A stretch of DNA of 56,332 nucleotides, taken from an uncultured Candidatus Saccharibacteria bacterium. GTDB taxonomy: Bacteria > Patescibacteriota > Minisyncoccia > Phycocordibacterales > WO2-35-19. The stretch covers positions 1-56,332 of the forward strand of contig CAYTTP010000003.1 in NCBI GenBank assembly GCA_964440955.1. The letters are read 5' to 3'. The notes under the pieces are model-generated. The model had not been told where the DNA came from. It made no database searches and saw nothing but the letters and a program-made list of their open reading frames with translations. Position numbers and translations under genes: made by a program. How positions within the stretch are numbered: the stretch's first letter is position 1; each line of letters begins with the position of its first letter. Positions 454 through 55,077 of this stretch are shown here, in pieces.

Positions 454-586
454 GCGATATATACGGAAGTGTGGCTGAGTGGATGAAAAGCAAACTGCTT
501 TGCTTTTCATCCGGAGCAAAGCGTAGGTGGCAAATATGAAGCCACTGTTCGCAAAGCGACTTCCGTTTGAGCATCGCGATATATAC
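454..586 (+). repeat. duplicated 5' leader plus 5' part of tRNA-Ser, flanking an ~90-bp hairpin-containing insert
   Basis: 29-bp direct repeat gcgatatatacggaagtgtggctgagtgg at 454-482 and 576-604. The insert contains the hairpin atgaaaagcaaaCTGCtttgcttttcat and words shared with the tRNA-associated repeat family (ccggagcaaagcgtagg). Confidence 0.55.
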
Positions 587-673
587 GGAAGTGTGGCTGA
601 GTGGTTGAAGGCACCGGTTTCGAAAACCGGCATGCTCGAAAGGGCATCAGAGGTTCAAATCCTCTCACTTCCG
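587..673 (+). tRNA. tRNA-Ser (anticodon CGA)
   Basis: Acceptor ggaagtg/cacttcc, anticodon arm ccggt-ttcgaaa-accgg, long variable arm, T-arm agagg-ttcaaat-cctct, discriminator G; no encoded CCA. Confidence 0.85.
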
Positions 674-850
674 CAAAACAAGGAACAAAATGAGTAGCAT
701 TTTGCGACTATGTTTTTGCGAGAAAAGGAGAGATTTGAAGACCTTTTGAGCTAAAATTAATTTTAAGAAAATTTTAGCCAAAAGGTGTACTGAAACTGTA
801 AGTTTCAAATCCTCTCACTTCCGCAAAACAAGGAACAAAATGAGTAGCAT
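652..850 (+). repeat. 49-bp direct repeat (652-700 and 802-850) covering the tRNA-Ser 3' end through the ATG of the downstream gene, flanking a 101-bp insert
   Basis: ggttcaaatcctctcacttccgcaaaacaaggaacaaaatgagtagcat repeated with one mismatch. The insert carries the perfect hairpin gctaaaatt...aattttagc. Confidence 0.7.
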
Positions 851-1327: not shown

Positions 1328-1398
1328 GGGCCCATAGTTAAGTGGTATAACGCATCCATGGCATGGATGAGGCCGGAGTCCGATTCTCCGTGGGTCCA
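1328..1398 (+). tRNA. tRNA-Ala (anticodon GGC)
   Basis: Acceptor gggccca/tgggtcc with the G3:U70 alanine identity pair, anticodon arm catcc-atggcat-ggatg, T-arm cggag-tccgatt-ctccg. Confidence 0.8.
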
Positions 1399-1545
1399 CA
1401 AGCGTGAAGAAAATCTAAACTGCTTTAGATTTTTAGCTTGTGGAAGGCGCAGTGATGTTTTTGTTTGAGCGAAGCGAAAGGCAAAAACCACGAGCCGGGG
1501 TCGCGAGATTTTTCTGTCAAGAAAAATACTTGTGACCACAAGCGT
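1399..1545 (+). repeat. tRNA-associated repeat unit (family member, Ala locus)
   Basis: Begins agcgtgaagaaaatctaaaCTGCtttagatttttagcttgt (identical 42-mer also at 18239-18280). Contains gagcgaagcgaaag, ccggggtcgcgag, hairpin atttttct-gtca-agaaaaat, and ends acttgtgacc followed by a short copy of the tRNA 3' tail (ccacaagcgt). Confidence 0.6.
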
Positions 1546-6514: not shown

Positions 6515-6952
6515 ATGAATCGTCAAAATTTTAAAAAAGTTTTCACTATTGTTTTGGTACTTGCTCTTGTGGCGAGCGTCATCCTACCTCTCTTCACTTC
6601 GGCTCAAACCACTGATGATTCTAATCCACTCGTCCCTTGCGGTGGTCCTGGCCAAAAAGCTTGTGGCTATTACGACTTGTTGCGACTTGTGAACAATCTC
6701 ATTGATTGGGTGATCAAAATATCCATCCCTATTTCGGCCGGCATTTTTGCTTGGGCAGGTATTCAATATATGATGACGGGTGTTATGGACAAAAAAGCTC
6801 AAGCCAAAAAAATGCTAATGAATACCTTTTGGGGTTTTGTTTTTATTCTCTCTGCTTGGATTATAGTGTCGCTTGTGATAAATACCTTGCTCAATCCGGA
6901 GTATCGGGCTGATGTTGATGATACAATAAATCTAACCAAACCAACCAACTAA
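6515..6952 (+). CDS. TrbC/VirB2-like pilin family protein (paralog 1 of 8)
   Basis: Signal peptide, Cys pair, two hydrophobic helices AGIFAWAGIQYM...FWGFVFILSAWIIVSLV separated by a charged loop; same architecture as the downstream paralogs. Confidence 0.45.
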   Translation: MNRQNFKKVFTIVLVLALVASVILPLFTSAQTTDDSNPLVPCGGPGQKACGYYDLLRLVNNLIDWVIKISIPISAGIFAWAGIQYMMTGVMDKKAQAKKMLMNTFWGFVFILSAWIIVSLVINTLLNPEYRADVDDTINLTKPTN

Positions 6953-6954
6953 CC

Positions 6955-7371
6955 ATGAAAACATTTTTTAAAAAATATTTTTTTGTTTCGCTGATTACTT
7001 GTATTCTATCTTTGTCCTTTTTACCAAGCAGTTTATACTCTCAAGATGGTGGCAATCCTGGTGCTGGGGGTGGTAATCCGGGAGGTGGTTCCTCTTACCC
7101 AATCAAAATAGCAAACCCATTTAAACAAAGCAGTATCACCGACCTTATCACTATAATCATCAAAGAAATATTGATGCCAATAGGGGCAGTGATTGCGGTA
7201 CTTATGATCATGTATGCTGGTTTTATGTATGTTACTGCTCAAGGCAATTCAACTAAAATCACCGAAGCCACTAAAGCTCTCAAATATGCCGTCATCGGCT
7301 CAGCCATCCTTATCGGCGCTTGGACTATTTCCGAAGCTATTAGGGCGACTGTCGGTCAATTAAGGGTATAA
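6955..7371 (+). CDS. TrbC/VirB2-like pilin family protein (paralog 2, Gly-rich N-terminal region)
   Basis: Signal peptide, GGNPGAGGGNPGGG low-complexity stretch, two-helix hairpin IGAVIAVLMIMYAGFMYV...AVIGSAILIGAWTI. Confidence 0.45.
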   Translation: MKTFFKKYFFVSLITCILSLSFLPSSLYSQDGGNPGAGGGNPGGGSSYPIKIANPFKQSSITDLITIIIKEILMPIGAVIAVLMIMYAGFMYVTAQGNSTKITEATKALKYAVIGSAILIGAWTISEAIRATVGQLRV

Positions 7372-7387
7372 TTAAAACTCTAACAGG

Positions 7388-7669
7388 ATGAAAAACTTAA
7401 CCGAATTTATAACTTTTTTTACCGATATGGGGCTTAGGCTTGTACCACTATTTGCTGTCCTCGCCTTCATGTATTTTGTGTGGGGAGTAGCACGCTTCAT
7501 CAAAGCGGCGGGCAATGAAAAAGAGGTGGGGGACAGCAAAAAGATACTTATTTGGGGTGTTGTCGGCCTACTCGTGCTTACAAGTATTTGGGGTATTATT
7601 TCCTTTCTCAAAGGTGAGCTAAGATTTGGCGACAATGTTGGTATTCCTCAAATAAAATTTGAAAATTAG
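7388..7669 (+). CDS. TrbC/VirB2-like pilin family protein (paralog 3)
   Basis: FMYFVWGVARFIKAAGNEKE...ILIWGVVGLLVLTSIWGIISFLKG. Confidence 0.5.
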   Translation: MKNLTEFITFFTDMGLRLVPLFAVLAFMYFVWGVARFIKAAGNEKEVGDSKKILIWGVVGLLVLTSIWGIISFLKGELRFGDNVGIPQIKFEN

Positions 7670-7679
7670 ATGAAATAAA

Positions 7680-7949
7680 ATGAATGATTTTATTGATAAA
7701 GGTTATTCGATTATCACCAATACTCTCATCCCGCTTGGGTACTTTGTTTGCCTCTTTTACTTTGCTTGGGGTATTGCAAAGTACATCAAATCGATCGGTG
7801 ACGGCAAGGAGCAGGGCAGGCAAATAATGATTTGGGGAGTAGTTGGCCTTTTTGTAGTTACGAGTATTTGGGGTATTATTGAATTTATAAAGCTCGAAGT
7901 TGGCTTGCCTTTCGATAATTCAGAGCTCGATGCAAAAGTTTATAGGTAA
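7680..7949 (+). CDS. TrbC/VirB2-like pilin family protein (paralog 4)
   Basis: YFAWGIAKYIKSIGDGKEQGRQIMIWGVVGLFVVTSIWGIIEFIK. Confidence 0.5.
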   Translation: MNDFIDKGYSIITNTLIPLGYFVCLFYFAWGIAKYIKSIGDGKEQGRQIMIWGVVGLFVVTSIWGIIEFIKLEVGLPFDNSELDAKVYR

Positions 7950-7961
7950 AAATATAAAAAC

Positions 7962-8318
7962 ATGAAAAATAATTTTAAAAAAATAATTCCGGTTTCCCTC
8001 TTCCTTTTACCAATTTTAACAAGCGCTCAACTTGATGGGACAGACAAATTTTTTGGGAAAGCAAAGTCAATCGTAAGTGATACTTTGGTACCAGGAGCAT
8101 TTTTTGTAGCCCTCGTGTATTTCTTCTACGGTATCGCCAAATACATCAAGTCTGAAGGTGCCGGCAAAGCCGAAGGCAAAATGATCATGGTGTGGGGAGT
8201 GGTCGCTTTGTTTGTTGCTTCGTCAGTTTGGGGTTTGGTCACTCTTTTACAAAAGGAAATAGGGATAAACAGTAACCCTGGCAGTATGAAAATACCAACT
8301 TTAGAAACATATAGATAA
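7962..8318 (+). CDS. TrbC/VirB2-like pilin family protein (paralog 5)
   Basis: Signal peptide; YFFYGIAKYIKSEGAGKAEGKMIMVWGVVALFVASSVWGLVTLLQ. Confidence 0.5.
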   Translation: MKNNFKKIIPVSLFLLPILTSAQLDGTDKFFGKAKSIVSDTLVPGAFFVALVYFFYGIAKYIKSEGAGKAEGKMIMVWGVVALFVASSVWGLVTLLQKEIGINSNPGSMKIPTLETYR

Positions 8319-8323
8319 TATTT

Positions 8324-8620
8324 ATGCTTACAAACACCGAAACTTTTTTGAATCAAGCTATTACTCTTTTGACCAATAGAGTCATACCTATTGTCTTTAT
8401 CCTCGCTACGCTCTACTTCTTTTGGGGCATTGTCAAATACATCAAGTCGGAAGGTGCTGGCAAAGCTGAAGGAAAAGCCATTATGGTGTGGGGAGTAGTA
8501 GCCCTTTTTGTGATGACTAGCGTATGGGGCATCGTTCGCTTGTTGAGAGTTGATTTGCTTAGTGGGCAGGACACCAACAGTATCCAAATCCCAACCGCCA
8601 CTTACGGTACTACTCGCTAA
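8324..8620 (+). CDS. TrbC/VirB2-like pilin family protein (paralog 6)
   Basis: YFFWGIVKYIKSEGAGKAEGKAIMVWGVVALFVMTSVWGIVRLLR; near-identical core to paralog 5. Confidence 0.5.
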   Translation: MLTNTETFLNQAITLLTNRVIPIVFILATLYFFWGIVKYIKSEGAGKAEGKAIMVWGVVALFVMTSVWGIVRLLRVDLLSGQDTNSIQIPTATYGTTR

Positions 8621-8751
8621 CCACTTCCCACCTACTCCCTACTCCCTCTGTGGATTACTTTTTGCTTGCAAAGGCAAAAAATGGTAAAGTAATGGTAAAT
8701 TAAAAATGTTTATTCATTTTAATTATTATTAAAAAGTATTTGCTAAATTAA

Positions 8752-9096
8752 ATGAAAAAAGTATCTATAGCAGTAGCGATGGCTCTTTTGCCACTTTCAA
8801 CCTTTGCCCAACAGCTCGGCAATATCAGCAACTTAGTTGATAGCGCAAGCGGTATAATCAATAAGGTTATACCTATATTGTTTACACTTGCTTTGCTCGG
8901 CTTCTTTTGGGGCTTGGTCAGATTTCTTTTTGGTGGTGCTGAAGACAAGGATCAGGCAAAAAACATTATGATTTGGGGCGTAGTAGCGCTTGCGGTCATG
9001 GCTTCAGTTTGGGGATTGGTCAACTTCCTTGGTTCGGCATTTAACATCAACAAGGATGCCGCTCCTTCTGTAAACCCTCTTATTCCAAAACCTTAG
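8752..9096 (+). CDS. TrbC/VirB2-like pilin family protein (paralog 7)
   Basis: Signal peptide; FFWGLVRFLFGGAEDKDQAKNIMIWGVVALAVMASVWGLVNFLG. Confidence 0.5.
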   Translation: MKKVSIAVAMALLPLSTFAQQLGNISNLVDSASGIINKVIPILFTLALLGFFWGLVRFLFGGAEDKDQAKNIMIWGVVALAVMASVWGLVNFLGSAFNINKDAAPSVNPLIPKP

Positions 9097-18003: not shown

Positions 18004-18076
18004 CCGCCCGTAGCTCAGTTGGTAGAGCAGCTCCCTCTTAAGGAGATGGTCGTAGGTTCGACTCCTACCGGGCGGA
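18004..18076 (+). tRNA. tRNA-Lys (anticodon CTT)
   Basis: Acceptor ccgcccg/cgggcgg, D-arm gctc-agttggta-gagc, anticodon loop ctcttaa, T-arm gtagg-ttcgact-cctac, discriminator A. Confidence 0.8.
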
Positions 18077-18365
18077 CAATATTGTTTCGCAATATTGTTC
18101 GACCGAGCACGCAAACTGCTTTGCGTGCGTGTAGGAAGTCGAAAGCCGGAGCCATGTTGAGCGAAGCGAAACAGGCGAGGCGGGGTCGCAAGATTTTGCT
18201 AAGCAAAATACTTGTGACCGACTCCTACCGGGCGGACAAGCGTGAAGAAAATCTAAACTGCTTTAGATTTTTAGCTTGTCCGAGACGGAGCCATGTTTTT
18301 GTAGCAACAAAAACAGGCGAGTCAGGATCGTGGAAATTTTTGAGCGACGGCGATAAAATTATCCA
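18077..18365 (+). repeat. two tandem tRNA-associated repeat units (Lys locus) separated by a 19-bp copy of the tRNA-Lys 3' end
   Basis: Unit X 18077-18219 ends ...ggcggggtcgcaag-attttgc-taa-gcaaaat-acttgtgacc. Then gactcctaccgggcggaca at 18220-18238 is identical to tRNA positions 18058-18076. Unit Y starts with the 42-mer shared with 1403-1444. Both units contain caaaCTGCtttg-type hairpins. Confidence 0.65.
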
Positions 18366-18449
18366 TGATGACAATATTGCGAAGTGGTGATGATTTACGA
18401 AACTTAATATAAAACGAAGGGCACTCGATGTTCGGGTGCCCTTAGGAAT

Positions 18450-27135: not shown

Positions 27136-28056
27136 TTGTATAAATCAAATAAAATAGGTTATCCTCTGTTCGGAGGCCTTGTGGATAAACCTGCATTTGA
27201 AAGGTATTTTCTGAGAGATGTAAATCATCAGAGTGGTAGGGTGAAAAATCGAGAAATTTTTGCTCCAAACGATTCAATGCGTGAGGTGCAAGAGGGTATA
27301 GTGGCCAAACTTCGGTCTTTGGAGATTGAGATGCCGAGCGCGACTGGTGGTGTCAGGAATGGTTCGCCAGTCAATAACGTCCTCAAACATTGGTCACCTT
27401 ACAATAAGAGTGCGAGATACTTTTTTCTGCTTGATCTAGCATCTGCTTACAAGAATGTCCTTGTGAGCGATATGTTAGTTGAACTGAAGAGGGTGTGGCC
27501 ACATGATTGCGACGAGAAGTTTGTTCAGAGTGTTATGAATCACTGCTTGATACCGGGTGAGGGTTTGGCAACTGGAGGTAACGCCTCGCCAGATATTTTC
27601 AACCTATGTATGGAGATTTCGATTGATCGGCAAATACGCTCGTATGCCGAATACAACGATCTCACCTACACTCGTTATCTCGATGATCTGACTTTCTCAT
27701 CTCCTTTTCCGATAGGTAAGAGGAAGAGGAATACGATCATCAAGATTCTCACTGAAGCTGGTTGTGTCGTTAACCATCAAAAGTCTCAGGTGCTTGATAT
27801 CGAAAAGCATCATGTGGAAATAAATGGTATCGGCTTGCGTCGTAGCGGACACTTCTTCATGCCTAGTCGGGTCTTGGATGAGTTAAAAAACTTGCTCTAT
27901 CGGGCAACTAGAGGGGAGTCCATTTCCGATTCTCTCATTCAAGGCAAGATGGGCGGGTTCATCTATCTTAGGAGAAAAGGCTTGCTTGCTCTGACCGAGA
28001 GAGAACGTAATATCCTTCGACGGTACGAGCAATATCTGCCGTTGCGCCGGGGTTAA
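27136..28056 (+). CDS. reverse transcriptase, retron-type (RT domains 1-7 with YTRYLDD)
   Basis: RT motifs REIFAPNDSMREVQEGI, SATGGVRNGSPVNNVLKH (NAxxH-like), FLLDLASAYKNV, GLATGGNASPDIFN (QGxxxSP-like), YTRYLDDLTF (retron-like YTRYADD), VEINGIGL (VTG-like). The likelier start is GTG at 27181 after GGAGG; the ORF track begins at TTG 27136. Confidence 0.75.
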   Translation: MYKSNKIGYPLFGGLVDKPAFERYFLRDVNHQSGRVKNREIFAPNDSMREVQEGIVAKLRSLEIEMPSATGGVRNGSPVNNVLKHWSPYNKSARYFFLLDLASAYKNVLVSDMLVELKRVWPHDCDEKFVQSVMNHCLIPGEGLATGGNASPDIFNLCMEISIDRQIRSYAEYNDLTYTRYLDDLTFSSPFPIGKRKRNTIIKILTEAGCVVNHQKSQVLDIEKHHVEINGIGLRRSGHFFMPSRVLDELKNLLYRATRGESISDSLIQGKMGGFIYLRRKGLLALTERERNILRRYEQYLPLRRG

Positions 28057-28130
28057 ATCCTCGGCGCTCTGTTTTTAATAGTGTGTAAAAATTTTGAAAT
28101 ATCTGGTATTGTGTGCGGAGGAGGTGAACT

Positions 28131-28535
28131 ATGTCCAGTATCTCGAATAGAGAAATGACATTTGTTGTAGCTGTTCTGTACTCTTTGCCCGAAAAGTGGC
28201 GAGGGGTTGGCCGTTCTTTCTCGTTTGAGGATGTGCAAGATAGGCTACATCTTGCTTGGCATAGACTCTATCAAGAAGGATTGCTTGGGGAGTTTGGTGA
28301 ATCGTTTTCTTTTGACGCTCTTTGTGGCTCAGACAGTCTTGGGCAAGCACTTCGCACAGCTGCGGTAGATGGGCTCATAAGGATCGGTGGCTCTGATATG
28401 GCTTATCATGTTGATGTCCTGAAGCCTGACCAAATTGATCGTATGTTAGAGTCGTGCGTAATAGACCGAAGTGCCGTGACTACTGCTGTCAAACGTCTCG
28501 AAGCTATTCTCGAAGAGAAACCCTCCCCGGCTTAG
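28131..28535 (+). CDS. hypothetical small acidic protein downstream of the RT (candidate retron accessory/effector)
   Basis: 134-aa ORF with strong GGAGGAGGTG ribosome-binding site, 75 nt after the RT stop; no recognisable family. Confidence 0.45.
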   Translation: MSSISNREMTFVVAVLYSLPEKWRGVGRSFSFEDVQDRLHLAWHRLYQEGLLGEFGESFSFDALCGSDSLGQALRTAAVDGLIRIGGSDMAYHVDVLKPDQIDRMLESCVIDRSAVTTAVKRLEAILEEKPSPA

Positions 28536-28597
28536 AGTCGGGGAGTTTGGTTTGTAATAAACTAAAAATCTGTTAAAATCTCAAAAGTAATAATATT

Positions 28598-28681
28598 GCG
28601 TCGGTGGTAGAGTGGTCAATTACAACAGACTGTAAATCTGTCGCCCATTGGGCTACGCAGGTTCGAATCCTGCCCGGCGCA
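28598..28681 (+). tRNA. tRNA-Tyr (anticodon GTA)
   Basis: Acceptor gcgtcgg/ccggcgc, anticodon arm acaga-ctgtaaa-tctgt, long variable arm cgcccattgggctac, T-arm gcagg-ttcgaat-cctgc; no encoded CCA. Confidence 0.8.
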
Positions 28682-28872
28682 CAAAATAAAACCCAGCTTC
28701 TGCTGGTGTTTTATTTTGTGCGCCGGAAGTGCAGCTTTGTGTAGCAAAGCGTAGCACGGATTCGAAAGGCGGAAGAAATTTTTTAGCAAAAAAATTTCTG
28801 AGCCGGGGTCGCGAGCGATTTTGCTTGACTGAAGCAAAATCGACTTGTGACCGAATCCTGCCCGGCGCACCA
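28682..28872 (+). repeat. tRNA-associated repeat unit (Tyr locus) ending in a copy of the tRNA-Tyr 3' end with CCA
   Basis: Long hairpin gcgcacaaaataaaacccagc/gctggtgttttattttgtgcgc, then ...gagccggggtcgcgagcg-gattttgc..gcaaaatc-gacttgtgacc followed by cgaatcctgcccggcgcaCCA (28852-28872). The gene itself reads ...ggcgcaCAA. Confidence 0.65.
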
Positions 28873-29285
28873 CTTCGCTCTGTTATCACAGAGCTTCGCG
28901 GTGCAAGCACAAAAAGATCCCCAGAGATGGTGGTATTTTTGTTATAATTAAGCGAAGTGGTCCCGCGGAGCTAAACCCAGCAAAGCTTTAGCGAAGTTGG
29001 GTAGCGGAGTGGGGCACAAATAAAATTATATGAAAAAGACGCCTTGAGAGGCGTCTGGATGAGGGTGGGGAGTCAGGCTGCCGCAGGACGCGGATTATCC
29101 TATTCTCATAGGACAGACCGCTATTTGCCTATCTCTACCCACCCTCAAGCGGTGAGGATGAAGAGAGCTTCACGCAGGGCGCTTGCGCTGGCACCTGTGT
29201 GGGGTGGGTTGCTCAATCTCCATCCTCACGCATTTACTATTATAGCAAATGTTTGATTGCCTGTCAATAAATTTCAGTGGAAAGA

Positions 29286-34882: not shown

Positions 34883-35725
34883 ATGCAACAATACTGCTTT
34901 TTTAATGGCAAAATCGTACCAATAGAGGAGGCGAAAGTCTCTGTTTTGGACATTGGGCTTTTGCGAGGTTATGGTATTTATGATGGTATCCCAAGCTTCA
35001 ATGGTAAACCATTTCGTTTTGCTGATCATTGGAGCAGGTTTGTCGCTGGGGCACATACGCTCAATTTGAACATCCCGATCACTGAAGAGAAGGCAGAAAA
35101 AGTAGTGATTGAGTTGCTTGAAAAAAACGGAATGACTGAGAGAGCTAACGTGCGTTTTATTTTGACTGGTGGCGACACGATAAGTGGTATTGAATATGAT
35201 TTTGAAAAGCCTACATTCTACATAATCACTGAAAGATGGGAGAAGCTTCCAGAGGAAGTGTATAGCGAAGGTGCCAAACTTATCACCTACCGTCACGTAC
35301 GAGAGTTACCAGAATCAAAAACTATCAATTATATTCGCGCTGTCAATTTGCAAAATTTTAAAAAAGAGGAGAAGGCTCTCGAGATCCTGTATACCTACGA
35401 TGGCGAGGTGCTTGAGTGCGCGACTAGCAATGTTTTTCTTGTAAAGAACAAAAAAATCATCACTCCGGCCGAAAATGTTTTGAAGGGTATCACTCGCAGG
35501 GTTGTGCTCGAAATTGCTTCCGATACTTACGAAGTCGAGGAAAGGATAGTACATGAAAGTGAGCTCAAAGAGGCTGATGAGGTATTTATTACTTCCTCAT
35601 TTAAAGATATAGTCCCGATAGTCAAAATAGACGATATGGTGGTCGCAAATGGAGAGGTGGGAAGTGTCACTAAAGACATAATGTTTCGGTATAGACGAGT
35701 CATTCAAAACGTTCCCCTCGCTTAG
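34883..35725 (+). CDS. class IV aminotransferase (D-amino-acid / branched-chain aminotransferase family)
   Basis: 280 aa; fold-type IV PLP enzyme signatures (FNGKIVPIEEAKVSVLDIGLLRGYGIYD..., catalytic Lys region); sits in the mur cluster. Confidence 0.6.
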   Translation: MQQYCFFNGKIVPIEEAKVSVLDIGLLRGYGIYDGIPSFNGKPFRFADHWSRFVAGAHTLNLNIPITEEKAEKVVIELLEKNGMTERANVRFILTGGDTISGIEYDFEKPTFYIITERWEKLPEEVYSEGAKLITYRHVRELPESKTINYIRAVNLQNFKKEEKALEILYTYDGEVLECATSNVFLVKNKKIITPAENVLKGITRRVVLEIASDTYEVEERIVHESELKEADEVFITSSFKDIVPIVKIDDMVVANGEVGSVTKDIMFRYRRVIQNVPLA

Positions 35726-35896
35726 CACACATAATTTTCTGCTGAAAATTTGTTCTGCTCGGTGCACCTGCGCAAGGCACGCTCGGGGAAGTTTCTGAAT
35801 GGCTCGTCCCTCATTGCAAATAATTAGCTTTGTGTTATTATTGGCTCTGTCCTAAATGGTATCTTAATTTTCAATCTTTAATTCTAAATTCAAAAA

Positions 35897-36104: not shown

Positions 36105-36205
36105 TAGGGCCTATAGTTCACCATGTCATTCGCGAATGACGTGGTCAGTGGTAGAATAGCGGTCTCCACCCCGTCGCTCGCGAGCGACAGGGTCCAAAAC
36201 CAATA
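36105..36205 (+). pseudogene. degenerate tRNA-Trp-like 5' fragment interrupted by two small palindromic insertions
   Basis: gggccta-ta-gttca[ccatgtcattcgcgaatgacgtgg]tcagtggtag-aat-agcggtctcca[ccccgtcgctcgcgagcgacagggt]ccaaaacc parallels the downstream tRNA-Trp (gggtgat-ta-gtta-agtggcat-aat-agcggtctccaaaacc) but lacks a 3' half. Confidence 0.4.
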
Positions 36206-36209
36206 CCAG

Positions 36210-36470
36210 ATGTATTACGTCTATATTCTTAAAAATTTAGAGTCTGACTACTTATACATAGGCTACAGTTGTAATCTCAGAAGGAGAATAGAAGAACATA
36301 AAAGTGGTAAGGTTTATACCACCAAGCGATTAGGTAAAAATATCGAGCTTATTTACTACGAAGCTTATAAGAGCAAAGAGGATGCGCAGGATAGGGAAAA
36401 GAGTTTTAAAAAATCTGGTTCAGTGTATAATGGCCTTATTAAAAGAATAAAGAGAAGTAGGGGTGATTAG
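36210..36470 (+). CDS. GIY-YIG family nuclease (small, YhbQ/homing-endonuclease-like)
   Basis: MYYVYILKNLESDYLYIGYSCNLRRRIEEHKSG... has the GIY-(10)-YIG ... R ... E/H motif order. ATG read from the ORF-track frame; the stop overlaps the tRNA-Trp 5' end. Confidence 0.65.
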   Translation: MYYVYILKNLESDYLYIGYSCNLRRRIEEHKSGKVYTTKRLGKNIELIYYEAYKSKEDAQDREKSFKKSGSVYNGLIKRIKRSRGD

Positions 36471-40949: not shown

Positions 40950-41030
40950 GCCGGAGTGGCGGAATGGTAGACGCGCACGACTCAAAATCGTGTCTCGCAA
41001 GGGGTGGAGGTTCAAGTCCTCTCTCCGGCA
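40950..41030 (+). tRNA. tRNA-Leu (anticodon CAA)
   Basis: Acceptor gccggag/ctccggc, anticodon arm cacga-ctcaaaa-tcgtg, long variable arm, T-arm ggagg-ttcaagt-cctct, discriminator A; no encoded CCA. Confidence 0.8.
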
Positions 41031-41190
41031 CAGATTGAGCAAAGCGAAAGTGGTGTCGGAGAGGCGTAGCTTTTTGTAAAAAAGCGTTACGCGGACTTGA
41101 AACCCGATTGAGATTTTTTAGGAGTATCGCGAACTAAAAAACCAATTGGGGTACTGAGTCTGTAAGACTCAAGTCCTCTCTCCGGCACCA
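41031..41190 (+). repeat. tRNA-associated repeat unit (Leu-CAA locus, diverged) ending in a copy of the tRNA 3' end with CCA
   Basis: gagcaaagcgaaag...ctgtaagac followed by tcaagtcctctctccggcaCCA (41169-41190), copying tRNA positions 41012-41030; the gene continues ...ggcaCAG. Confidence 0.55.
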
Positions 41191-46398: not shown

Positions 46399-47286
46399 CT
46401 ACACTTTCCGCACTTCTCCAAGGGATTCCTTAATGAGGCTTTTGAGCTCGAGGAGGGAGAGCAGGGTTTGAGCTTCGCCGACGTGGATTGAGTGGTCGGT
46501 CGAGAGCTTTCGGATGATTTCGTCTCGCGGGAGTGGTTCGTTGAGAAGTCGAAGTATTAATATTTCTTTTTCACTGCAATCAAAATATTTATCCTCGTCA
46601 CGCCGTAGCGGGGCGGAGGCGGATTCATCGAGTATACCAAGCGCCTCCAAAATGTCGTCACTGTTTCGAATCGGGGTCGCTCCGAGGCGGATGAGCATCA
46701 AAGGTCCTTCACTGGTTGAATTCCAAACGCTCCCCGGTACAGCAAGTACCTCTCTGTTGTATTCGGTCGCAAACTTGGAAGTGATGAGGGTGCCCGACTT
46801 TTTTTCTGCTTCGATAACAAGGGTTGCGTGTGACATGCCGGCCATGATGCGATTGCGTTGAGGGAAGCTGTATTGGGTCGCTTTGAAGTCTGGTTCAAAT
46901 TCGGAAAGCAGAGTACCACCTTCTTTTACTATTTTTTCAGCAAGCAGTATGTGTGATTGGGGGTGAAGTACTTCTGGTGAAAGCCCGGAGCCGGGGACGG
47001 AAATGGTCGGTAATTTGTTTTTGAGGGCAGAGTTATGAGCAATTGAGTCGATACCAAGTGCCAAACCGGAGACTATTGTCACAGGATTTCCTTTCAAACC
47101 CTCGATCAAACTTTCAGTCACCTCCTTGCCATATTGGGTGTATTTGCGCGCACCGACCACACAAAGAAGTTTGCGACTCCAGTCAGGCACTTGGCCTGCA
47201 AAGTTTAGTTTTAGAGGAGGCTTTGGAATTTCGGAGAGCAGGGGAGGCCAATTGGTGGTGTCGAGATTTTTTATTTCGTAGGCCAT
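46399..47286 (-). CDS. dprA: DNA processing protein DprA (Smf)
   Basis: Rossmann-like core VVGARKYTQYGKEVTESLIEGL...IVSGLALGIDSIAH; classic dprA-topA synteny. Confidence 0.8.
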   Translation of the reverse strand: MAYEIKNLDTTNWPPLLSEIPKPPLKLNFAGQVPDWSRKLLCVVGARKYTQYGKEVTESLIEGLKGNPVTIVSGLALGIDSIAHNSALKNKLPTISVPGSGLSPEVLHPQSHILLAEKIVKEGGTLLSEFEPDFKATQYSFPQRNRIMAGMSHATLVIEAEKKSGTLITSKFATEYNREVLAVPGSVWNSTSEGPLMLIRLGATPIRNSDDILEALGILDESASAPLRRDEDKYFDCSEKEILILRLLNEPLPRDEIIRKLSTDHSIHVGEAQTLLSLLELKSLIKESLGEVRKV

Positions 47287-54656: not shown

Positions 54657-54729
54657 TGGTTGCCTAAGGGGTGATGTTTCTGGTACAATGCTCTCGTTCT
54701 TTGAAATTCCAAAAATTAGATTTTTTTGC

Positions 54730-55061
54730 TCCGGGATAGCTCAGCGGTAGAGCGAGCGACTGTGTCGTGACGCAGCTTCCAAAAGAAATTTTGGTTGAAA
54801 AACGAGGTGAATTCGGGGGAACCCCAAGTGGGCAATCCCGAGCCAATCCTAAATTAAAGAAAGATATTGTTGTGTAAAAACTTTAATTAAGGCAGGTGTA
54901 GAGACTATTCCGAAAGGAAGTACTTACTCCGTATTTCGGAGTCGGGAAGCGCCTCGCTCCTAATAGCCAATTTGGTTAAAGGAGATGATATAGTCCATAC
55001 TTCTAGTAATAGAAGAGAATATGTAATCGCTTGGTCGTAGGTTCGATCCCTACTCCCGGAG
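54730..55061 (+). tRNA. tRNA-Asn (anticodon GTT) interrupted by a group I intron in the anticodon loop
   Basis: 5' exon 54730-54763: tccggga-ta-gctc-agcggta-gagc-g-agcga-ctgt. 3' exon 55024-55061: taa-tcgct-tggtc-gtagg-ttcgatc-cctac-tcccgga-g. U1:A72 and G73 fit Asn; the 5' splice site follows a U and the intron ends in G. Confidence 0.7.
54764..55023 (+). other. group I self-splicing intron (~260 nt) within tRNA-Asn
   Basis: Conserved core elements R-like GTAGAGACTA (about 54897), S-like GATATAGTCC (about 54988), P-like AATTCGGGGGAA; the internal guide GCAG can pair with the exon end CTGT (U-G at the splice site); no ORF inside. Confidence 0.6.
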
Positions 55062-55077
55062 CAAAGGAATTTAATAT

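Follow-up and report, generated by a model that had tools for sequence, protein, structure and literature searches.

Small non-coding elements with a target-complementary guide at tRNA genes of a Candidatus Saccharibacteria bacterium: a possible new family of intron-like mobile RNAs

The stretch of DNA analyzed here (the window; 56,332 nt, contig CAYTTP010000003.1 of assembly GCA_964440955.1, from an uncultured Candidatus Saccharibacteria bacterium) is an ordinary chromosome segment of a member of the Patescibacteria (Candidate Phyla Radiation, CPR), with encoded proteins that include GyrA, IF-2, ClpB, MurC, MurB, MiaA, ParB, RelA/SpoT, TopA, SerRS, and Dus. Ten transfer RNA (tRNA) genes were identified by ARAGORN and Rfam, and an 11th, for tRNA-Asn, is split by a group I intron. 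Seven short elements, the subject of this study, lie at five of these 11 tRNA genes (the intron-split tRNA-Asn counted); between their repeats they span 100-190 nt of non-coding DNA without an open reading frame (ORF). The elements are flanked by exact repeats of parts of the tRNA: 29 bp (5' side) and 47 bp (3' side) at Ser, 10 bp at Ala, 21 bp at Lys, 19 bp at Tyr, and 20 bp at Leu-CAA (Table 1).

A first-pass annotation of the window had drawn attention to the tRNA-Lys gene (18004-18077) and to a repeat unit that follows it (unit X). Both are present, the tRNA being called by ARAGORN and Rfam, and the unit ends as described there, in GGCGGGGTCGCAAG, a hairpin, and ACTTGTGACC (18180-18219). 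The copy of the tRNA-Lys 3' end behind unit X is exact over 21 bp (18059-18079 = 18219-18239), and the first 42 nt of a second unit (unit Y) are indeed identical to the sequence after tRNA-Ala (18238-18279 vs. 1400-1441). Because the hairpin pattern GGTCGCRAG..CTTGTGACC occurs three times in the window against an expectation of 0.00, and because the 42-nt identity is exact, the observation of a recurring repeat unit stands. The same annotation held that in every case a GGGGTCGCGAG...ACTTGTGACC segment is followed by tRNA sequence from the T loop onward, which requires amendment: at Ala and in unit Y the repeat begins at the discriminator (nt 73), and at Leu-CAA the hairpin segment is missing, with a different core (type B) in its place. 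At Ser, an element does occur at 454-586, as had been proposed, but it is a 5'-side element in the D loop, and its repeat consists of the leader plus nt 1-19. A second Ser element, on the 3' side, was beyond the earlier list; it is of type B, with a unique part at 701-803 and a 47-bp repeat (654-700 = 804-850). The only promoter-like site for tRNA-Ser (416-443) lies upstream of the left partial copy, and from this placement it is likely that the element is transcribed together with the tRNA. Also absent from the earlier description was an internal segment, found in every element, that is complementary to the duplicated tRNA sequence.

The elements are built in a common order: X, the target copy from the junction to the tRNA end; a hairpin (P0) that is often terminator-like; the complementary segment (antiX, or guide), frequently split around a conserved hairpin with the motif AAACUGCUUU; a conserved core; and X', the second copy of X. 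Type A cores are three-way-junction RNAs of at least 62 nt. They open with a single A, followed by the 3-bp helix P2, which has a variable hairpin in addition to a GGA/GA internal loop. Next come a GG linker and the helix P3 (GGUCGCGAG/CUUGUGACC), which contains a bulged A, a variable hairpin, and two G.U pairs. In unit X of the Lys locus, for which antiX reads CAAUAUUGUUCGACCG plus GUAGGAAGUCGAA, the core has P2 (GCC/GGC), the GGA/GA internal loop, a variable hairpin P2a, the GG linker, and P3 (GGUCGCAAG/CUUGUGACC) with its bulged A and a variable hairpin P3a. The type B core consists of CCCGAUUG..CAAUUGGG, followed by GUACUG and a small hairpin with a UGUAA loop; it is carried by the window Leu-CAA and Ser 3'-side elements and by L010, L025, L096, L098, and L118 (comparison loci outside the window bear L numbers). 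Copies without P2 occur in L004, L058, and L093, and some other copies have an extra GAAAGUGUACUCAC module.

Table 1. Coordinates of tRNA genes, element parts, and a related core in the window.
Locus	Feature	Position (nt)	Strand	Evidence or remark
Lys	tRNA-Lys(CUU)	18004..18077	+	ARAGORN, Rfam
Lys	X, tRNA nt 57-76 plus AA, first copy of duplicated segment	18060-18079	+	Exact repeat
Lys	Unit X, guide region	18077..18143	+	Sequence, RNAfold
Lys	Unit X, P0 hairpin CAATATTG-TTTCG-CAATATTG	18077-18097	+	
Lys	Unit X, antiX1	18090-18105	+	Complement of acceptor 3' strand and flank
Lys	Unit X, conserved AAACUGCUUU hairpin	18107-18128	+	
Lys	Unit X, antiX2	18131-18143	+	Complement of T-arm UUCGACUCCUAC, including UUC 5' of junction
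Lys	Unit X, type A core	18145..18219	+	Covariance model R1, 66 bits, E = 2.8e-20; covariation, 78 copies
Lys	X' of unit X	18220..18239	+	Second exact copy of tRNA-Lys nt 57-76 plus AA
Lys	Unit Y, degenerate 3'-end-type element	18238..18379	+	R1, 16 bits, E = 0.002
Lys	Unit Y, P0	18238-18279	+	Identical to Ala 1400-1441
Lys	Unit Y, guide GCUUGUCCG	18274-18282	+	
Lys	Unit Y, core	18284-18370	+	
Lys	Unit Y, X' ACAATATTG	18371-18379	+	Repeat of 18076-18084
Ala	Whole locus	1328..1545	+	With 3'-end-type type A element
Ala	tRNA-Ala(GGC)	1328-1399	+	
Ala	P0 and guide	1400-1443	+	Guide AGCUUGUGG pairs with CCACAAGC
Ala	Type A core	1446-1537	+	R1, 53 bits
Ala	X'	1538-1545	+	10-bp repeat CCACAAGCGT, 1396-1405 = 1536-1545
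Tyr	Whole locus	28598..28872	+	
Tyr	tRNA-Tyr	28598-28682	+	
Tyr	P0	28683-28717	+	Terminator-like stem 28693-28706
Tyr	antiX1 GUGCGCCGG	28718-28726	+	
Tyr	Hairpin	28729-28757	+	
Tyr	antiX2 GGAUUCGAA	28758-28766	+	
Tyr	Type A core	28768-28852	+	R1
Tyr	X'	28853-28870	+	Then CA, giving native CCA
Leu-CAA	Whole locus	40950..41190	+	
Leu-CAA	tRNA-Leu(CAA)	40950-41031	+	
Leu-CAA	Type B element	41032-41168	+	
Leu-CAA	Guide halves GGUGUCGGAGAG plus GGACUUGAA	41052-41063 and 41093-41101	+	
Leu-CAA	CCCGAUUG/CAAUUGGG helix	41103-41150	+	
Leu-CAA	GUACUG	41151-41156	+	
Leu-CAA	Hairpin with UGUAA loop	41157-41169	+	
Leu-CAA	X'	41169-41188	+	Then CA (native CCA)
Ser	Whole tRNA-Ser(CGA) locus	454..850	+	
Ser	Left partial copy: leader plus tRNA nt 1-19	454-482	+	
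Ser	5'-side variant element	483-575	+	
Ser	Leader copy and intact tRNA	576-674	+	
Ser	X (47 bp)	654-700	+	
Ser	Type B element, unique part	701-803	+	
Ser	X'	804-850	+	
	Free-standing core relative	35719..35784	-	R1, 16 bits, E = 0.0016

In the chromosome, the insertion point lies in the T loop between tRNA nt 56 and 57, or between nt 72 and 73, and X' begins at nt 57 (..UUC|RANNCC) or nt 73 (..N72|A73), with a repeat of 4 to 47 nt. Target and element have the nucleotide before the junction in common, which is generally C and in unit Y is G (tRNA-Lys G72). In L029, L041, L061, and L105, X' starts with T instead of the purine found in the tRNA, a recurrent difference placed exactly at the joint. 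Complementarity between X and antiX, with G.U pairs allowed, is present at every locus examined. The guide spans 6-23 nt on the 3' side of the junction (longest in L170, where it is perfect over 23 nt and includes the complement of CCA) and overshoots the junction by exactly 3 nt onto sequence that belongs to the intact tRNA only; the single A and then P2 follow. These 3 nt are GAA in T-loop copies, facing UUC, and GCG, GCA, GCC, or GGA in 3'-end copies, facing tRNA nt 70-72, with which they covary in six of six 3'-end-type copies. Under symmetric scoring, the mismatches in the X:antiX stem are 17 G.U vs. 3 A.C, and thus the structure is strand-specific and read on the tRNA-sense strand.

An intact tRNA was called at every locus: the element's own X completes the tRNA and the old 3' end is displaced downstream, so that no splicing is needed for the gene to be intact. 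The guide has two possible partners, X and X', and in unit X of the Lys locus RNAfold predicts that X' pairs with antiX (helix P1). When the complete Tyr, Lys, and Leu transcripts are folded, the predicted minimum-energy structures have X' closing the tRNA, and X:antiX plus core form a T-loop insertion; as modeled, the arrangement is that of an intron in which an internal guide keeps the final 3 nt of the 5' exon beside the 3' exon. Such folds would suit a true tRNA intron, self-spliced or enzyme-spliced, in which the mature tRNA would be nt 1-56 joined to X' and the first copy would be intronic. The encoded CCA at Tyr and Leu-CAA, present only with X', points the same way, as does the span of the guide over both sides of the junction, like P1/P10 of group I introns. 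We nevertheless consider a true intron very unlikely: X' is truncated, mutated, or interrupted by an indel in about half of the copies, whereas the first copy is always intact, and 3'-end-type copies lie outside the mature tRNA. In L001 the two copies have different discriminator bases, G in one and A in the other. To our knowledge, no bacterial enzyme for T-loop introns has been described. One locus (L087, 2700-2860; record DDER01000031.1) has a tRNA-Trp that an element seems to interrupt after the D arm, no intact copy being present nearby, which would argue for splicing if real; 20 N mask its 3' junction.

A scan of species-representative genomes returned at least 119 loci, about half of which hold true copies, the rest being chance matches in GC-rich genomes. 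Among the matches listed, to which the counts that follow also refer, the core covariance model identifies at least about 86 copies in ~55 loci, often with several copies within one 8-kb locus. The hosts comprise many classes of Patescibacteria, gut and groundwater Elusimicrobia, and two bins labeled Leptospira and Bdellovibrionales (one each). At least 17 anticodon types are used. Whether every copy abuts a tRNA had been left by the first-pass annotation as a matter to check; this holds for most but not all. A tRNA or transfer-messenger RNA (tmRNA) gene lies within 400 nt of 60 of the 77 strong hits, upstream in 53 and downstream in seven, and in 60 of 60 it is on the same strand (opposite strand, 0); the other 17 have none nearby, several of them being at locus edges. 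In L100 (4247-4822) an element occurs 65 nt 3' of the tmRNA gene, and its guide fits the tRNA-like 3' end of tmRNA. Two elements, L041 7685-7790 and L061 5776-5882, are inserted in the 3' end of topA, with the functional gene end and a hairpin upstream and a decayed duplicate (~65-70% identical) downstream. The free-standing core relative in the window has a long closing stem and no adjoining tRNA; it has kept the P2 GCA/GA motif and the P3a hairpin AAAUUUUCAGCAGAAAAUU, and the P3 base is missing. Similar copies were seen in L052 (1764-1833) and L007 (1111-1188).

Alignment of 78 type A copies supports a conserved RNA fold, with 98.2% of cells paired and variation on both sides in 19 of 23 pairs. 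The covariation score is 0.541, vs. 0.138 for shuffled alignments (0 of 500 reached the observed value), and it does not exceed 0.066 when the partners are slid. Near-invariant positions are the unpaired A, GA, and GG and the bulged A. No match to the elements was obtained in Rfam 15, either for the whole window at gathering score or for the Tyr locus (28560-28900) at E <= 10, and within the same limits models of known small self-cleaving ribozymes (hammerhead, hairpin, hepatitis delta virus (HDV)-like, twister, twister-sister, hatchet, and pistol) were unmatched. A known RNA family was accordingly rejected as an identity, since Rfam matches in the window were confined to tRNAs and one group I intron. 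No description of the element family was found in the literature searched on tRNA, T-loop, Patescibacteria, ribozymes, and mobile elements, in which only group I introns at position 35/36 came up (PMC13011429).

That the elements were inserted is evident from relatives in which the site is empty. A metagenome scan for uninterrupted tRNA-Tyr 3' ends identical to X plus CCA gave 89 loci, two of which, L227 and L186, share synteny with the window (70% identity in ClpB over 2.3 kb, with IF-2 and MiaA nearby). The L227 tRNA-Tyr is 87% identical to that of the window and uninterrupted (...GGTTCGAATCCTGCCCGGCGCACCA); its ...GCGCACCA runs directly into CTTCGCTTTGCATTGGCAAAGCTACGCGGTGCAAGCACAAAAGC, which corresponds to the window flank after X' (82% over 116 nt), and no core was found at the tRNA-Tyr site of L227 or L186. 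Relative to this empty orthologous site, the window has a real insertion at 28664-28852, and the ancestral 3' end is X' together with its CCA. In the 89-locus sample, which was gathered blind to the element, only ~10 loci are occupied (type A in L170, L189, and L194; other variants in L177, L178/L210, L180, L193, and L223), and the element is therefore accessory. At tRNA-Leu(CAA), the site is empty in L110, and it holds type A in L013, L041, L080, and L106 and type B in the window. Exact-protein look-ups for empty sites within the population gave none; contigs end at elements. A Logan contig (L122, 4700-5200) is an assembly chimera in which a tRNA-Ser(GCU) 3' element is joined to the Tyr core; it indicates that the window genome has extra copies outside the window, 5' and 3' of tRNA-Ser(GCU), and that elements break or misjoin short-read assemblies.

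Cores at different tRNAs can be nearly the same. Even with the variable hairpins counted, identity is 87-95% among those of window Ala, L102 Ala, L050 Ala(CGC), and L028 Val. The accompanying tRNAs share 51-82% identity, their downstream flanks show no relationship, and each guide is different, so as to match its own tRNA end. The core travels INDEPENDENTLY and spreads independently of tRNA and host. Repeated insertion and decay are evident in tandem arrays (window Lys, L091, L064, L118, and L126), greater-than-unit-length copies (L010 Cys and L013 Trp), 5'-side copies in the D loop (window Ser, L025, and L122 tRNA-Ser(GCU)), a tRNA fragment with a T-loop insertion beside the intact gene (L075), and the topA copies. 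The first-pass annotation had proposed a tRNA-targeting miniature mobile family with many copies per genome, and had suggested that relatives be searched for empty sites or for ordinary conserved tRNA trailers. The empty sites at tRNA-Tyr and tRNA-Leu(CAA) and the near-identical cores at different tRNAs support that proposal, and the sequence is not an ordinary trailer, given that most tRNA-Tyr genes of identical 3' end lack it.

The same data bear on whether the elements might instead serve the host, as a cis-acting trailer or leader RNA of the tRNA that affects processing, termination, folding, or stability or that is released as a small RNA. Copies would then have spread by ectopic recombination and gene conversion, and antiX would hold X' or X in a defined fold. 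The strong conservation seen in the core, unpaired nucleotides included, the likely co-transcription with the tRNA, the toleration of elements at about half of the tRNAs in a very small genome, and the occupation of the same tRNA (Leu-CAA, Ala) in several genera could all be accommodated by such a function. It is harder to reconcile with the many element-free tRNA-Tyr genes, with copies that are free-standing, tandem, decaying, or located in 5' leaders or the topA 3' end, and with a core that has diverged far less than its tRNAs; nor does the duplicated target segment have an obvious use in processing. On balance, a host-serving RNA appears rather unlikely.

The T loop and 3' end of tRNA and tmRNA genes are classical targets of integrases, and integration duplicates the 3' part of the gene. 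The exact direct repeats of the tRNA 3' part at both ends (10-47 bp) resemble this outcome, and the first-pass annotation had named attL/attR scars as a possible identity, that is, remnants of integrase islands or prophages later deleted to about 150 bp. A recombinase-like ORF fragment beside tRNA-Glu in L085 would fit. However, a single conserved RNA core occurs at 17 or more tRNA anticodon types in several phyla, and the elements bear an internal guide complementary to the target. They contain no ORF, and no integrase, transposase, TnpB, or homing endonuclease domain was found by Pfam in the elements or among the 40 window ORFs scanned. Only one of 25 pattern hits in 2.9 million viral contigs proved genuine, and a phage origin was rejected on that ground. 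The conserved, covarying interior effectively refutes this identity, to which we attach hardly any probability.

A non-autonomous DNA transposon, like a miniature inverted-repeat transposable element (MITE) or of IS200/IS605 type, would account for the many short, ORF-less copies per genome, for the direct repeats (as target-site duplications), and for contigs that break at copies. Its transposase would be encoded elsewhere, and the strand-specific hairpins with G.T pairs would act in DNA recognition. By inspection, however, the elements have no terminal inverted repeats (ends are, e.g., AAAATAAAAC... and ...CTTGTGACC), and the repeat length is variable, ranging from 4 to 47 nt and reaching ~90 nt at topA; the repeat often continues into a second partial unit. 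The 40 window ORFs gave no transposase, TnpA, OrfB, Y1 transposase, or TnpB domain, and Rfam families of IS605-type RNAs were unmatched; the three-way junction, covarying stems, and invariant joining nucleotides resemble a functional RNA. A DNA transposon is thus improbable in our assessment.

The search for partner genes proposed by the first-pass annotation gave no integrase, and no link was found between the reverse transcriptase (RT) at 27136 and the elements. This RT, the only one in the window, is retron-type (306 aa, 27136-28056). Together with an uncharacterized 134-aa ORF, it occupies 27136-28535, between ClpB and tRNA-Tyr; both genes are missing from the syntenic L227, which marks them as a separate indel, possibly a defense module. 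By tblastn, no homolog of the RT was found among the 119 genome-derived loci listed, and it was rejected as a partner on these grounds. A tRNA-derived short interspersed nuclear element (SINE), also raised in that annotation, is disfavored since the core is not tRNA-like and this RT has no counterpart near elements elsewhere. A longer autonomous parent was sought in two gaps of 700-750 nt between tRNA and core and rejected, the gaps containing only the recombinase-like fragment (L085) or an uncharacterized ORF (L029). Small stand-alone GIY-YIG ORFs adjoin tRNAs or elements at window 36123-36470, L025 5875-6126, L029 954-1325, and L114 1842-2138, and one directly follows tRNA-Tyr in L227. These could be coincidence or a candidate nicking partner; no link is claimed because the loci are too few.

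We regard as about evenly balanced the proposition that the elements constitute a new family of small, non-coding, guide-bearing, intron-like mobile RNA elements that bring a replacement tRNA 3' end. Under this proposition the guide would choose where to insert by pairing with its target as RNA or as a single strand, and the core would provide catalysis or protein binding in a reaction that cuts and joins at the junction. A complementary DNA (cDNA) or recombination step would carry new copies into the chromosome. A circular X-P0-antiX-core intermediate would explain the precise joint between core and X', the variable end of the repeat, and the over-length copies. Once installed, an element could spread among relatives by plain homologous recombination, without an enzyme of its own, since it is flanked by two halves of its target. 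A more specific form of the proposal is tentative and rather unlikely: that the core represents a novel type of small ribozyme, or supplies the RNA component of a novel ribonucleoprotein (RNP), and performs guide-directed cutting and rejoining of RNA at C|R. The ~150-nt element would then insert into tRNA and other transcripts, possibly via a circular X-P0-antiX-core RNA, and genomic copies would be fixed by reverse transcription or recombination, making the element protein-free, RNA-guided, and never in need of splicing. The strongest version, in which the RNA itself is the catalyst, is doubtful.

Several points weigh against the proposed mobile RNA elements. No protein partner emerged from the 40 window ORFs scanned, and catalysis, RNA ends, and the circular form are predictions from sequence. 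X' is shortened to 5-10 nt in about half of the copies, so that splicing onto X' cannot be generally required, and the analogy with introns may be only formal. A terminator-like P0 could halt transcription before the core, and the strand-specific G.T bias is also compatible with a structure in single-stranded DNA. The search pattern with which the copies were gathered partly dictated the base of P3, an ascertainment bias that is only partly relieved by the unbiased tRNA-Tyr sample; there, copies adjacent to tRNA-Tyr in L170, L189, and L194 keep GUCG..UGAC, with variation around it. The model also leaves unexplained how guides of up to 23 perfect nt are acquired for a new target. Simple fold-back copying was rejected as their origin, because guides include G.U pairs and are often divided by a conserved hairpin.

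Two further features of the window concern its host. The tRNA-Asn(GUU) gene (54729-55070), which was overlooked by ARAGORN, has its group I intron at anticodon position 35/36 (Rfam 78 bits, 54754-55016), and L025 has a tRNA-Asn(GUU) with a group I intron in the same arrangement. This intron fits the class of group I introns at tRNA position 35/36 that is abundant in Patescibacteria (PMC13011429). A cluster of small type IV secretion pilin-like ORFs (6515-9096) and a DprA gene (46399-47286) are consistent with DNA uptake and exchange by the host.

On the mildest reading, the elements represent a new, strongly covarying RNA family fit for inclusion in Rfam and a marker of the dynamics of tRNA loci. 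If the mobile-element proposal is true, a structured RNA family that is widespread in Patescibacteria, Elusimicrobia, and beyond has gone undescribed in Rfam 15 and in the literature searched. Its members would be selfish elements of new design, with no gene of their own, a guide that matches the site, and a spare part that keeps an essential tRNA or tmRNA working. They would account for assembly breaks at tRNA genes and for the scattered partial tRNA 3' ends of these genomes, and would add a candidate for a novel ribozyme, or for an RNA-guided activity, whose guide arm can be programmed. It would become possible to test the long-standing idea that RNAs resembling introns can spread by reactions at the RNA level in organisms of minimal protein machinery.

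The family can be compared with several known systems. Group I introns in bacterial tRNA genes are likewise RNA elements within tRNA genes and abundant in Patescibacteria (PMC13011429), have an internal guide (P1/P10) that pairs on either side of the junction (a resemblance in design alone), and are flanked by two target halves, which makes spread by recombination possible. Such introns spread by reverse splicing or homing. The elements differ in lacking a group I core (Rfam RF00028 matches only 54754-55016), in having a core of at least 62 nt rather than about 200 nt or more, in a 3' end of C (...GACC) instead of G, and in a location at the T loop or acceptor end, not the anticodon loop; they also carry a copy of the 3' exon, and the gene is intact unspliced. 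Integrative elements and prophages with tyrosine integrases share the T-loop/3'-end target, the use of the tmRNA gene, and an element-borne 3' end that restores the gene while the native end is displaced, but they measure kilobases rather than 100-190 nt and depend on an integrase that the elements lack; the conserved RNA interior with guide, and one core for many tRNAs, further distinguish the latter. An element-encoded RNA that matches the insertion site, in a seemingly programmable way, is also found in IS110/IS1111 bridge RNAs, IS200/IS605 TnpB omega RNAs, and tRNA-homing type V-K CRISPR-associated transposons. Here, by contrast, no recombinase or nuclease gene lies in or near the elements, and the guide is long, sometimes bipartite, antisense, and self-paired in cis, with a duplicated target. 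With respect to IS200/IS605 and omega RNA in particular, target duplication is present and the 3' segment of the element is paired to antiX, not free. Retrozymes, viroid-like circular RNAs, and Penelope-like elements that carry small ribozymes are comparable as short non-coding structured units, in tandem and over-unit-length copies (L010, L013, L091, and L126), and in a possible circular intermediate; the present elements have no known ribozyme motif with Rfam and are chromosomal, tRNA-linked, and bacterial. Finally, the transposition of small tRNA introns in Thermoproteales likewise produces short related insertions at non-canonical positions, including the T loop, in many tRNAs per genome. 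Those introns form a bulge-helix-bulge, are removed by the archaeal splicing endonuclease, and interrupt the gene, whereas the elements described here are bacterial, leave the gene intact, and combine a large conserved core with a guide.

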